Assembly (NCBI GenBank): GCA_963728405.1
Contig: CAVSJV010000003.1
Location: 253,968 to 317,967, forward strand
Length of the DNA stretch: 64,000 bases
DNA from: Methanomassiliicoccaceae archaeon
GTDB taxonomy: Archaea; Thermoplasmatota; Thermoplasmata; Methanomassiliicoccales; Methanomassiliicoccaceae
Direction of reading: 5' to 3'
Below the pieces are notes generated by a model. It worked only from the letters and a program-made list of their open reading frames with translations. It searched no databases and had not been told where the DNA came from. A program made the position numbers and the translations under genes. Shown here piece after piece: positions 11,689 through 48,745 of this stretch. Within the stretch, counting starts at the first letter, position 1. The number at the start of each line of letters is the position of its first letter.

Positions 11689-11741
11689 TTCTTGACGACC
11701 TTCATATATAAACGTCGAACGGAGAGGTCAGTGAAAGTGCC
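11689..11741 (-). promoter_or_regulatory. tnpB copy 1 promoter: CACTTTC box, TATA and TCAAGAA
   Basis: GGGCACTTTCACTGACCTCTCCG..TTTATATAT..TCAAGAA, shared with copies 2 and 3. Confidence 0.6.
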
Positions 11742-11827
11742 CGTTTTCGCTTATCCTTGAGATGCCAGGGGGCATGTTCGCACGAAGATAAAAAAGATTA
11801 TGACCCGCCCGGGGGCGGTAAGGGGTT

Positions 11828-14800
11828 TTACTCCTCGGTATCGTCGGTTTCCTTGACGGCCGGCAGGATGGTGTCGGCCTCTATGGACTCGGTTTGCGCC
11901 ACCAAGAGCTTCTCCTGCGCCCCTACGAGCCGAGCGACCGCGGTGATCTTGTCCTCCTCGGAGAGCTTCATGATGGTCACGCCCATGGTCGAGCGGCCCA
12001 TCGTCCTGATCTCCTCCGCGGGTACGCGGATGACCATGCCTTGCAACGAGGTCAGGATCAGTTCGTCGTCGTCGGAGACCGTGCGCACCGAGACCACGCG
12101 GCCGTTGCGGTCGTTGGTCTTGATGGTGATCACACCTCTCCCGCCGCGATGGGTCTTGCGGTAGTTCTCGACCAGAGAGACCTTTCCGAAGCCATGCTCG
12201 GTGATGGTCAGCAGCTTGTCCTCTGGTCGCACGGCGGCCATACTGACCACCTCGTCGCCTTCGTCCATGCGCATGCCGATGACCCCGTGGGCGGGCCGGC
12301 CGGTGGACCGGATCTCGGTCTCCTCGAAACGGGAGGCCTGCCCATCCTTGGTGGCCAGTATTATCTCCATCGTCCCGTCCGTCAGCTTGGTATCCACGAG
12401 CTCGTCGCCTTCGTTCAGGCCGACCGCGATGATGCCCGAGGAGCGGGACGTTCTTGTACTCGTCGAGCACGGTCTTCTTGACGTTCCCGGCCTTGGTGGC
12501 GAAGACAAGGTAATGCTGGTCATCGAACTTGTTGATGGCCAGATTGTCCTCGATCCTCTCTCCGTCCTCCAGCTTGGGCAGGAGGTTGATGATCGGCTTG
12601 CCCTTGGAGTGGCGGCCGCCCACCGGGATGCGGTAGGCCTTTAGCCAGTAGACCCGACCCTTGTTCGTGAAGAACATGATGTAGTTGTGGGTCATGGTCA
12701 CGAAGAGGTCGACCACGTGGTCCTCCTCCTTGGTCTCCATGCCGATGAGGCCGACACCGCCGCGGTGTTGCTGCTTATAGGTGTCCAGCGGCACACGCTT
12801 GATGTAGCCATCGCTGGAGATCATGATGACCATCTCCTCGTTGGGGATGAGGTCCTCGATGTCCAGCTCCCCCGTGTCGATGACGATCTCGGTCTTACGG
12901 TCATCGCCGTAGGCCTGCCGGATCTCGGCCAGCTCGGCCTTTATTATGGCGAGGATCTTCATCTCGTCGGCCAGGATCTCCTCCAGTTCGCGGATGCGCT
13001 TCTCGATGGCCGCGAACTCGGCCCGCAGGTCCTCGATCTCCAAGCCGGTGAGGGCGCGGAGCCGCAGGTCCAGGATGGCCTTGGCCTGTATGTCATCGAG
13101 CTCGAACCGCTGCATCAGGCCGTCCTTGGCCTGCTCGGTGGTCTGGGCCTCGCGGATGATGCGGATCGTCTCGTCGATTGCGTCGACCGCCTTGATCAGC
13201 CCCTGCAATATGTGGTCCCGGGCCAGGGCCTGGCGCAGCTCGTACTCGGTGCGCTTGGTCACCACCAGCTTGCGGTAGTCGACGAAGGCCATGAGCATCT
13301 CGCGGAGGGTGAGCACCTTGGGCTCGTTGTTCACCAGGGCGAGGTTGATGATCCCGAAGGTCACTTCCATCTGCGTGTGGGTGAACAGCTGGTTGAGCAC
13401 GATCTCTTCCATGGCGTCCTTCCGCAGTTCGATGACGACCCGCATGCCGTCCCGGTCGCTCTCGTCCCGGAGGTCGGTGATCCCTTCGATCCGCTTGTCC
13501 TTGACCAGCTCGGCGATGTTCTCGATCATCGTCGACTTGTTGACCTGATAGGGGATCTCCTCGACGATGATGCGCTTGCGACCGTCCTTCTCCTCCATGC
13601 TGGTCCGGGCCCGTACCTTGAGGCGACCCCTACCGGTGGAGTAGGCCTCGATAATGCCGTTGGTGCCGTAGATGATGCCCCCCGTGGGGAAGTCCGGCCC
13701 CCTGATGAACGCCATCAGGTCGAGGTTGTCCGCGGACGGCTCGTCGATCAGATGGACGATGGCGTCGCAGACCTCCCTCAGATTGTGGGGAGGGATGTTC
13801 GTCGCCATGCCCACAGCGATGCCAGAGGAACCGTTGACCATCAGGTTCGGTATCTTGGCCGGCAGGACCACCGGCTCCTTCAGCGAAGCGTCGAAGTTGT
13901 CGGTCCACTCGACCGTTTCCTTGTCGATGTCCTGCAGCATGTCCTCGGCCACCAGATCCAGCCGGCATTCGGTGTAACGCATCGCGGCCGCTTCATCGCC
14001 GTCAACGCTCCCGAAGTTACCATGGCCGTCGACGAGCGTGTATCTCAAAGAGAAGTCCTGGGCCATGCGGACCAGGGAGTCATAGACGGCCGTGTCGCCG
14101 TGTGGATGATATTTACCAAGGCAATTTGAAACCACTATGCCGTTCGCTACAAATTCGTGGGCAACTGCAACCTGGATATCATATGTATGTTCTGCGGGGG
14201 CTGCGTCAATTTTCTTGATTCCTTGGAAATAAATGTGGTTATCCAAGATTTCCTGGAACAGGGGGGCAACCTTTGAACCGATTCTCTCAAGCTTAGAATG
14301 GATTCCCCATTCGATGATTTGAGTCCGACCCAGCGGACGTGTCCGAAGATCCGAGGAGTAACGAATATTTCCGCCATTCGGATAAGCGATCCCGCTACGG
14401 AATTTGTTACCTTCGTAATCCTCATACCACCCGCTTCCTAGGTGATGTTCTGATAGTTCATCGAATACTACGCTCCCGGCATAGGGGATACGGTCAAACG
14501 ACGAGACCTTACAATCCGCTGCAAGGACTGTGTTCTAATCGTTCCTTCCTCAATTCATTGTGTAACTCGAGTTTTAATGCAAGGGCTTTAGCATGCCGTC
14601 CATTGACTTCGATGGAGATTAGGGGATAATTCCGTTGCAGAAGCCATCCGTTTACCATCTGGATGTTATCTGTGCTATCCTGTATGTGGCGATGGCTCGG
14701 TATGCCCAGTTGCTGCATGATTAGTTGGACATCATCGGCCAACCTCTCGGATACAGTCCCATAGTGGATGGTAGAACGATCCTTATGGACAGATCCGTCA

Positions 14801-15774
14801 CCATCAATTAAACCAGATAGGAGAGCTGCCAAAGCAGTTTTTGGCGATTGAAATAATGCTTCTGGTACTCGAACGCTCTTCGTCTTATTAGACGTGGCAC
14901 CTTTAATAATATTCGCAATATATTTATTAAGGTCATGGTCTGTAATTCTTATCTGATTCATGACCTTGCCATCGGGCAAAGACTCCTGCGGATTTGCCCC
15001 ATAACTTCTAATTACTGCCTCATAACCGAATGTTGCTTTTAGCAGGTCCCGTACATGGTTTATTACTCCCACAGAGGACGAATAGAAGCAGAAATAGCCC
15101 ACATTCGTATTTCCGTTGGACGGTTCGAGGTGTCCATCCGACACGAACTGTCCAATCAAATAGGCAATGTTCTCATCGAGCTTAAGCTTCCGGCCATTCC
15201 AATCAGGCAAATCAACATAGGGCAGGTTATCTGGATAGTCGAACCTCATGACCAAATTGTCATTTTCAGTTAGCTCCTCTGCTTTCTTCCATTTATACTG
15301 AAGGCCATTGGTTATAACCTTAAATGGCTGCGATGGCGTCGCTGTTATCGATAGGCCACTTTCGAGAGTGATGCGCAGTAGCTCCCTCTTTGGCATCTCA
15401 TATAGCTCGGTGACGGTCGAGAGGCCCCTCTGAGTGTAGACCTGCTCGCCCTTACCGATCTCCTCGATGGGGATAAGACCGCGGTCCGTGAGCACACGGG
15501 TGCCGGCGACGAAACATTCTCCGACCACCCTGGCGCTCTTCTTATGGGGCTTGTTGTGGGTGTTCCCCATATCGTACATCGCGTACATGATACGCCGATG
15601 CACTGGCTTGAGCCCATCCCTTACATCGGGGAGCGCCCTACCGACGATGACGCTCATGGCGTAGTCGATGTAGGATTTCTTCATCTCCTGCTCGATGGGC
15701 CGGTGGATCTCTTTCAAAGGGGCAAGCACTACGGCCTGCGGTTCCGTGTTCTGTGATTCGTTATCGTCTGTCAT
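11828..15774 (-). CDS. gyrA: DNA gyrase subunit A with intein (indels near 14530 and 12450)
   Basis: [31 protein letters not shown] catalytic Tyr, GyrA-box QHRGGVG, C-terminal pinwheel repeats. Confidence 0.96.
14124..15516 (-). mobile_element. GyrA intein (~464 aa) with LAGLIDADG homing endonuclease
   Basis: [12 protein letters not shown]...[21 protein letters not shown], with motifs [10 protein letters not shown] and [10 protein letters not shown]. Lower GC than the exteins. Confidence 0.93.
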
Positions 15775-15784
15775 GTCATTTCAC

Positions 15785-47262: not shown

Positions 47263-47495
47263 TGATCTCAGTCCTCAAGATGAGATAGTGATAACTTCAT
47301 ATGAGAAACTGATGGCTGTCGGAACAGCGTAAGATTTATCCCCTATAACGAGTTAGGCAAATTAGACCTCAAGATGATGAAGCCTTTTGTGCTGATTCGT
47401 GAAGAATGATGGGCGAGCTGATTGGGGTCCACTGGTATTTTTTACCGTTTCCAGCATAGATCTGGATGCTTTTCGGAGCCTTTCCTGGGATCGAT

Positions 47496-48684
47496 CTATA
47501 CATATAGTTCCTGCTTCAACGAAACGACTCGCATCTCTCTTATGAGAGATGTGTTGGTCTCTTCTCCACAGGCGTCAATTCGGGCGCCACCCGCCCTACT
47601 GTTGAGGATATTAATTGCAGCATTCTCGTCCCTGTCTATTACCAAGCCGCAGACGGGGCAAGAGTAGACACGTTCTGCAAGAGAAATATCCTTGATATTG
47701 CCACAGCTCGAACATTTCTTGGTTGTGGGCTCATATTTTGGTGCGATCAATACTTCAGTACCAGCACTTTCAGCCTTGTACTGGAGCATCTCGATGAACC
47801 TAGACCATGAGGCGTCCGAGATCGATTTGGCCAACCTGTGGTTCTTTAACATGTTTGCAACATCCAATGATTCAACCACGATCGGGCCATAATTCGAAAC
47901 GATTTCGTGCGAAATCTTATGAAGGAAGTCAGTGCGTTGGTTTTTTACCTTTTCAGTAGCGATTGCCAACTTCTTCTTTGCTTTTCGTCTGTTGTTGCTC
48001 CCCTTTACCTTCCTTGATACCTCCCCCTGTAGTTTTTGATCCTCTTCTCTGATTTTCTAAAATATTCTGGATTGTCAAAATGGGTTCCATCCGAAAGCGT
48101 CACAAACGAGTTGATTCCAACATCGACACCAATGGGTTTCTTGTTCCCCTGGATCTCAGGCAGGTCTACCTTCAATGTGAATATGACAAACCACTTCCCA
48201 CCTGGTTTACGAAGTATGATGAGCTCCCTCACTTCACCTTTGGGGAGCCTGCTCAATATGATTGGCATCTTGCCTATCCTTCGAAGTTCAATATGCTTAG
48301 CATCGGGCATGGTGAATCCACTGTCAGGGAACCTTATGCTTTTCAACCCTTTTTTGAACCGCGGATATCCAGCGGATATTTGGGCACCCGCTTTCTTTTT
48401 CTCCATCCGGGAGAATATTTTTCAAAAGACCAGCATAATTGGTCGGTGGTCTTCCTCAAGGTCTCAGAGTAAGGAATTTTGAACTTTGGATCTTTTATCC
48501 GGAATTCAGTAACCATACGGGAGAACTGAGTTCTTCTGAGAGTGATCCCATTGGTATTGTATTGAAATATTGCCTCTTCCAAACAGGAGTTGTAAAGCTC
48601 AGAGCAGATGGAAAACTGCTCGTTGAGTTTCCGAATTTGTTTCTTTGATGGATAAATTCGGGATTTGATGTTCCTGATCGCCAT
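47496..48684 (-). CDS. tnpB: TnpB (copy 3, two indels), no tnpA
   Basis: K.RIYP, GYPRFK, GVDVG, VVESL, DASW, CSSCG..CPVCG, DRDENAAINI. Confidence 0.88.
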
Positions 48685-48688
48685 TATT

Positions 48689-48745
48689 TTCTTGAAGGAA
48701 ATGAATATTTAAAAGACTGAATGCCGGAGGTCCCCGAAAGTGAAC
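48689..48745 (-). promoter_or_regulatory. tnpB copy 3 promoter: CACTTTC box, TATA and TCAAGAA
   Basis: GTTCACTTTCGGGGACCTCCGG..TTTTAAATAT..TCAAGAA. Confidence 0.55.

Follow-up and report, generated by a model that had tools for sequence, protein, structure and literature searches.

A short promoter sequence, called the box here, is found both upstream of host recombination genes in the archaeal order Methanomassiliicoccales and inside insertion sequences (IS) that encode the RNA-guided nuclease TnpB. Three tnpB loci with the box lie in a stretch of 64,000 nucleotides (nt) from a Methanomassiliicoccaceae genome (contig CAVSJV010000003.1, positions 253,968 to 317,967), and "the window" means that whole stretch. 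Because IS and host promoters have the same box at the same spacing, we predict that the nuclease is transcribed together with host homologous-recombination genes, with the box as a real regulatory site that unites TnpB with genes of recombination and replication stress. Our probability for this reading is roughly 0.6.

In the window, the pattern CACTTTCNNNNACCYC (CACTTTC-N4-ACCYC) has three exact matches, at 11739-11724 (-), 39207-39222 (+) and 48742-48727 (-), against 0.00 expected from 100 shuffles. The original prediction, made from the letters of the window, had placed this motif upstream of tnpB copies 1, 2 and 3, followed by a TATA-like box and then by the word TCAAGAA 44, 43 and 47 nt from the motif start; motif, order and offsets were all recovered, with the AT-rich TATA-like boxes beginning 26-28 nt after the motif start. 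The assembly of the source genome (G000; 2.73 Mb, 57% G+C, 93.75% complete) holds 15 exact matches and none to the reversed pattern. Exact matches also occur in 9/10 other genomes of the genus, typically 1-14 each, against 0-1 for the reversed control. The full form of the box is bipartite, YACTTTC-N4-ACCYCC(C), and ends 8-10 nt upstream of TATA; in the window and in the host promoters examined, TATA begins 24-28 nt past the box start. With the usual archaeal distance from TATA to start, the box would fall at about -57 to -40 relative to the predicted start of transcription.

Orthologous upstream regions of host genes were gathered by protein search, i.e., blind to the motif, and the counts that follow score YACTTTC. 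Upstream of radA this word is present in 20 of 30 genomes, which span seven families of the order. The box begins 65-68 nt before the ATG in 19 of these 20 and is followed by the C-rich half and by a TATA box about 25 nt past the box start. Half (20/40) of all YACTTTC words on both strands of the ~3.9-kb radA loci fall within the 110-nt region upstream of radA. In this genome the radA box reads TACTTTC-AGCT-ATCCG, and its TATA-like box begins 25 nt after the box start. In a sample of the whole phylum, Thermoplasmatota, 11 of 23 loci have A[CG]TTTC with a C-rich half ahead of radA; one locus was masked.

Three other genes of DNA handling have the box as well. It precedes a Rad51 paralog in 16/16 genomes and an RPA/SSB-like gene in 17/23, and four of the six RPA-like misses have the right end of an IS or a miniature element inserted at the TATA box. 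For top6B the match is exact in 8/22 genomes and degenerate at the same position in the others; this genome has the exact form, with 58 nt from box to ATG. The original prediction expected a genome-wide scan to find the motif at repair genes, and at these four genes it does occur, at fixed spacing. A box at fixed spacing in host promoters makes the motif more than the shared descent of three copies.

At least eight non-IS promoters of this genome carry the box. They include those of top6B, the Rad51-family paralog (Pfam Rad51, 2.2e-9), the RPA/SSB-like OB-fold gene, a resolvase fragment, five small paralogs of a CxxC zinc-ribbon family and a few small open reading frames (ORFs). Among 40 exact-motif sites in eight relatives, the gene on the 3' side is a TnpB in 14, a small zinc-ribbon protein in 5, and an RPA-like protein, a Rad51 paralog and a GyrI-like protein in 2 each; the 15 others include an RNase H-superfamily exonuclease and a RusA resolvase (Pfam). 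Near the box-bearing host promoters there is no TTTAAC word, hairpin, right end or other IS remnant.

The small-protein family has about 56-99 residues. Its members here are G000 C12:4465-4644, C12:8983, C13:123983, C11:2979 and C4:270800, with copies in relatives at L087, L088, L091, L103 and L107. Two CxxC pairs are present in the C12:4465 member and in the relatives' copies, and none in the other four members of this genome. The box precedes every copy seen and Pfam zinc-ribbon matches are weak, making these proteins candidate regulon members. Contig C12, which has two box sites, was considered as a provirus or plasmid; this idea was rejected, its ORFs resembling sensor kinases and response regulators by eye.

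One alternative is that the three motifs in the window are functionless and merely reflect the common descent of related IS copies. Copies 1 and 2 are indeed members of one family (DNA identity about 80% where both are present), and multi-copy elements inflate genome-wide counts. Copy 3, however, has no DNA-level kin in the genome yet has the box, the spacing and the TATA box. We also chose TnpB loci by protein homology alone, again blind to the motif, and restricted them to the 18 with a match reaching the N-terminus. Eleven of the 18 have the full box, six show it at the same position with one base changed, and one is without it. The box is kept at loci that are only 37% identical in protein and have unrelated flanks, and the box-bearing TnpBs form at least three lineages, 24-35% identical, whose left ends cannot otherwise be aligned. 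Together with the host promoters, which contradict it, these data leave the ancestry explanation with next to no credence.

We aligned family-A copies from this genome and its relatives with the box as anchor. On the 5' side of the box the sister copies remain homologous for 47-55 nt, as far as a TTTAA(C)/TTATC word, and their left ends contain a hairpin that covaries (CCCCC-TGCG..GC-GGGGG versus CCTCC/GGAGG). The right end is the conserved GGTAGTTCAC. The original prediction had described the sequence further upstream as unrelated and without a left-end hairpin; inside the window this holds, the hairpins of the window copies being decayed and their single-strand folds no better than shuffles, but the sister copies elsewhere share the 47-55 nt, the word and the hairpin. 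The box is thus internal to the IS, with the left-end hairpin on one side and the TATA box of the element on the other, and the element brings it along as its tnpB promoter. The proposed wiring of these nucleases into a host regulon therefore needs rewording: host recombination promoters do have the box in common with tnpB, but the box belongs to the element and not to a host promoter at the insertion site.

These elements were predicted to lack tnpA, and the 93.75%-complete assembly indeed has 0 matches to the Y1 transposase TnpA (PF01797), which occurs in 2/24 genomes of the family. This absence fits non-autonomous elements. A conserved block of about 130 nt, the predicted guide-RNA region, ends at GTAGTTCAC at the 3' end of the element. 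Miniature elements without tnpB keep this block (G000 C17:244965-245179, outside the window, and also the G000 C17:257216 region and G003 L086). They consist of the left end, the box, TATA, about 20 nt and then the 130-nt block, so the box promoter would, on this layout, drive the guide RNA alone.

At the RPA-like promoter, the right end of an IS or miniature element adjoins the same point in 4/23 genomes (G000 L201, G002 L205, G009 L206 and G011 L223), and these insertions split the TATA box (native ...TTTAATA...). They could be either one old insertion or the product of repeated homing. Elements of this family seem to choose sites just after TTTAA, and TTTAA is concentrated in the TATA boxes of these G+C-rich genomes.

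The box could instead be a cis-acting transposition signal of the left end, used in TnpA recognition or strand folding, in which case the likeness to host promoters would be coincidental or due to exapted solo left ends. The original prediction named a motif that proves to be the transposon left end as one outcome that would refute it. The box is indeed always part of the left-end region, with 47-55 nt between it and the terminus, and left end, box and right end are kept without tnpB in 2/4 of the RPA-promoter cases, at C17:257216 and in G003 L086. However, it lies about 50 nt inside the terminus and is neither the hairpin nor the cleavage word. Its distance is fixed to TATA and not to the IS terminus across lineages with unrelated left ends, it is kept despite the absence or rarity of Y1 TnpA, and two miniature elements persist without it. 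The host sites, moreover, have no TTTAAC, hairpin or right end and occupy orthologous positions in seven families. We consider a transposition signal very improbable.

The features of the window are as follows, by copy, with the left end and conserved right end defining copy 1 as 10475-11786.

10475-11786, minus strand: IS copy 1, tnpA-less IS200/IS605-type with TnpB only; sister-copy homology runs from about 11751 to 10475, and the left-end alignment reaches 11786.
10475-10486, minus strand: right end GGAGTAGTTCAC of copy 1.
11787-11791, minus strand: TTATC word next to the left end of copy 1, target-like and putatively a target-adjacent motif (TAM); sister copies have TTTAAC.
11740-11786, minus strand: left-end region of copy 1, with decayed hairpin.
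11721-11739, minus strand: promoter box CACTTTCACTGACCTCTCC of copy 1.
11705-11712, minus strand: TATA box TTTATATA of copy 1, beginning 27 nt after the box start.
11689-11695, minus strand: TCAAGAA of copy 1, an IS-specific conserved word that would lie just 5' of the predicted transcription start.
10480-11604, minus strand: tnpB ORF of copy 1, 374 amino acids counted from GTG.
39153-39796, plus strand: IS copy 2, a remnant with an internal deletion and a frameshift, in the same family as copy 1; left boundary approximate.
39785-39796, plus strand: right end GGGGTAGTTCAG of copy 2.
39207-39225, plus strand: promoter box CACTTTCACTCACCCCCCG of copy 2.
39232-39240, plus strand: TATA-like GTTCATATC of copy 2.
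39250-39256, plus strand: TCAAGAA of copy 2.
47490-48794, minus strand: IS copy 3, a divergent TnpB lineage; right boundary approximate.
48795-48799, minus strand: TTAAC word next to the left end of copy 3 and 52 nt 5' of its box.
48724-48742, minus strand: promoter box CACTTTCGGGGACCTCCGG of copy 3.
48705-48715, minus strand: TATA-like CTTTTAAATAT of copy 3.
48689-48695, minus strand: TCAAGAA of copy 3.
52955-53970, plus strand: fourth tnpB pseudogene, of the 'MLLTFVIKHGRDF' type, frameshifted and of another lineage; overlooked in the original prediction.

The ORFs downstream of the three boxes are TnpB by Pfam (OrfB_IS605, Cas12f1-like TNB and HTH_OrfB_IS605). Copy 1, inserted just downstream of the gyrA terminator, matches PF01385 (2.6e-24) and PF07282 (4.2e-21); its frame is open further 5' through a conserved KCRLYPN, with no in-frame ATG, GTG or TTG there. 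In the copy 2 protein, about residue 20 is followed directly by about residue 230, and there is a frameshift in addition. Copy 3 is broken into three ORFs on the minus strand (48343-48684, 48005-48406 and 47496-47969), whose fragments match PF07282 (3.1e-22), PF01385 (1.9e-8) and HTH_OrfB_IS605 (2.2e-7); its TnpB is 47% identical to family A over residues 211-394. All that is left of the box at the fourth tnpB is a decayed version about 62 nt before the ATG, whereas its sister at G000 C3:210132 has TACTTTCAGTGGCCTCC. An intact tnpB copy is present elsewhere in the genome, at G000 C7:111958-113154. Because all four window copies are degraded, the partial domestication suggested in the original prediction is unsupported.

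Two further observations concern the window at large. Near-identical words CACTGTCCCCGACC at 60859-60875 (+) and 62619-62635 (-), found as 2-mismatch matches, may be a repeat. The gyrA (11751-14246) and MCM (41119-44820) genes are long ORFs whose translations, judged by eye, have intein-like insertions, several of them in MCM.

The closest known system is that of Halobacterium NRC-1, where TTTCACTTTCA lies upstream of TATA in the ultraviolet (UV)-B-induced genes radA1, top6B, vng17 and vng280 (Boubriak et al. 2008, Saline Systems 4:13, PMC2556686). A similar motif precedes radA in other haloarchaea and in Methanospirillum, and the paper also gives a near match 52-62 nt before the ATG of "npa, a putative transposase", which shows 2.1-3.0 fold UV-B induction (PMC2556686). 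We found npa on plasmid pNRC200, with the exact word 52-62 nt before a gene of 446 residues. Its protein has the OrfB_IS605 and Cas12f1-like TNB domains (Pfam), so npa is a TnpB. In the available part of the 2008 paper, the TnpB nature of npa goes unrecognised and no conclusion on transposons is drawn. The small ORF just 5' of npa (pNRC200 L115:36873-37112) is probably vng6359, described in that paper as "similar to vng17"; by eye it looks like an N-terminal fragment of a DEDD/RNase H-like exonuclease (FDIETTG), and in G003 (L083) the gene after the box encodes a full RNase_H_2 protein.

The Halobacterium motif and our box are alike in their CACTTTC core, in their place 5' of TATA and some 50-65 nt before the ATG, and in their occurrence at radA, at top6B and before a TnpB. 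They differ in that the Halobacterium motif has a TTTCA repeat, whereas the box here is bipartite with a conserved C-rich half, ACCYCC. The phylum also differs (Thermoplasmatota here), and instead of one TnpB gene there are several TnpB lineages together with tnpB-less miniature elements. Compared with the Halobacterium genes described there, the regulon here, known from sequence alone, additionally holds the Rad51 paralog and the RPA-like gene.

In Sulfolobales, damage promoters contain 5'-ANTTTC-3' (extended AATAGTTTCRG...), which is footprinted by Orc1-2 and whose mutation abolishes induction (Sun et al. 2018, NAR 46:6697, PMC6061795). ACTTTC, or AGTTTC in some relatives of this genome, fits ANTTTC, a likeness that is weak evidence alone since it concerns a 6-mer with one free position. 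The extended AGTTTCRG also resembles ACTTTCGG here, and both are promoter-upstream. However, the Sulfolobales targets named in the available part of that paper are the crenarchaeal systems ups, ced and tfb3, without radA; the second half-site differs from that of the box, and the position is -23 to -55 from the ATG versus about -54 to -68 here. The Halobacterium and Sulfolobus damage motifs that the original prediction cited thus exist as it described them (PMC2556686, PMC6061795).

Two Orc1/Cdc6 genes are present in this genome. One is origin-adjacent and Orc1-1-like (2qby_A, 375 bits); the other is a divergent paralog at C17:378079, with 1fnn as its best solved match (165 bits). By analogy with Orc1-2, the divergent paralog is a candidate regulator of the box. 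Directly upstream of the Orc1-1-like gene (G000 C17:453580) is an element like the origin recognition box (ORB), CAGTGGAAATAAAGGGGTGGGGG, which marks a probable replication origin. The box and the ORB element resemble mirror images of each other, but their parts are in opposite order and we judged the likeness not meaningful. In the literature we searched, no factor for the Halobacterium box was found, and no paper ties TnpB expression to an archaeal damage regulon beyond the 2008 microarray result for a "predicted transposase".

Under our preferred reading, a factor would bind the box beside the TFB-recognition element (BRE) and TATA and control initiation, the box occupying the place from which an archaeal transcription factor would assist or obstruct TBP/TFB. 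The box would mark a small regulon of radA, the Rad51 paralog, the RPA/SSB-like gene and top6B, which in relatives may extend to the GyrI-like protein, the RNase H-like exonuclease, RusA and the small zinc-ribbon proteins. Several tnpA-less IS200/IS605-type lineages have the same box, at the same spacing in the left end, as tnpB promoter. The signal would be DNA damage or stalled replication, with damage suggested by the Halobacterium and Sulfolobales cases. TnpB and its guide RNA would then be made as RadA, its paralog and the single-strand-binding protein rise. TnpB is known to cut the emptied donor site of IS200/IS605 elements, after which recombination restores the element (homing). A TnpB break at an emptied or naive target would, following this model, be repaired from a sister copy, which may be how the element benefits.

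Several results weigh against this reading. The short core YACTTTC with an AT-rich octamer at +22..+30 is unenriched (57/490 = 0.116 versus 0.058-0.125 for permuted cores), so we dropped the short form as a genome-wide predictor and confine specificity to the long form. A weight matrix from 16 sites finds 24 sites above 17 bits versus 3 in the reversed genome, a comparison that is circular for the seed sites. The compared genomes are relatives and their counts are non-independent events. The nrd genes, which the original prediction expected to have the motif, have no A[CG]TTTC within 260 nt at either locus (nrdD and a class I/II-type ribonucleotide reductase gene in pieces), and the MCM promoter in the window has no box, which makes the regulon narrower than a general damage or replication regulon. 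On the TnpB side, 9/16 zinc-ribbon loci of this genome are without a box, including the intact genes C3:223107 and C5:441993, and none was found within 200 nt at haloarchaeal plasmid TnpB loci (H20 = H21, H23 and H39) or at the Methanomethylovorans locus H1; a further locus of that set, H8, has tnpA immediately 5' and was left out of scoring. The box was also lost in 2/4 of the miniature elements at the RPA-like promoter.

A competing explanation accepts the box as a real regulatory site common to host and IS but has it report cell-cycle or replication phase, or growth state, with tnpB expressed in each replication round. IS200/IS605 elements move via single-stranded DNA at forks, and the regulon (top6B, the RPA-like gene, radA and the Rad51 paralog) concerns DNA handling generally. 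The Halobacterium top6B, vng17 and npa genes respond to low UV-B doses only, which the authors link to the recovery of replication (PMC2556686). Typical replication-phase genes, however, i.e., MCM and both nrd loci, are without the box, and the origin-adjacent orc1/cdc6 gene has ORB elements and no box. In addition, radA is the archetypal damage-induced archaeal gene (PMC2556686). We regard a replication-phase signal as possible but rather unlikely.

Known mobile elements that respond to damage offer two comparisons. Transposition of ISDra2 in Deinococcus radiodurans is reportedly triggered by irradiation. ISDra2 is of the same transposon family, and its activity too is tied to DNA damage or single-stranded DNA; there, however, the coupling is said to be via substrate availability, whereas here it would be transcriptional, via a host-type promoter box, in elements without TnpA. 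In bacteria, LexA/SOS-controlled elements such as integron integrases and prophages likewise put a host damage-regulon operator in their own promoter, but they differ from the TnpB elements in domain of life, transcription machinery and motif.

A bolder extension, which we offer tentatively and think doubtful, is that A(C/G)TTTC is an ancient pan-archaeal operator, possibly of a non-initiator Orc1/Cdc6 regulator, which TnpB elements have captured repeatedly. This would amount to "homing on demand", with nuclease and guide RNA firing only when RadA-dependent recombination is induced, and the miniature elements would be box-driven guide-RNA genes. The TTTAA preference would lead to insertion in TATA boxes, where the gene behind the insertion could come under the control of the element's box, as may have happened at the RPA-like gene in 4/23 genomes.

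TnpB is the ancestor of Cas12, and to our knowledge its regulation in native hosts is largely unknown. What is new here is the apparently systematic use of a known archaeal repair-gene box, in bipartite form and in another phylum, as the promoter of TnpB elements. A little-studied repair box is thereby extended from Halobacteria to Thermoplasmatota and refined, with the gain of a short candidate regulon, including uncharacterised zinc-ribbon proteins, and of a candidate regulator class. The result is relevant to the sensing of DNA damage in Euryarchaeota. A common operator for radA and tnpB, if true, would offer a direct explanation for the tolerance of a self-targeting nuclease, whose cuts would fall at times when homing repair is already up.

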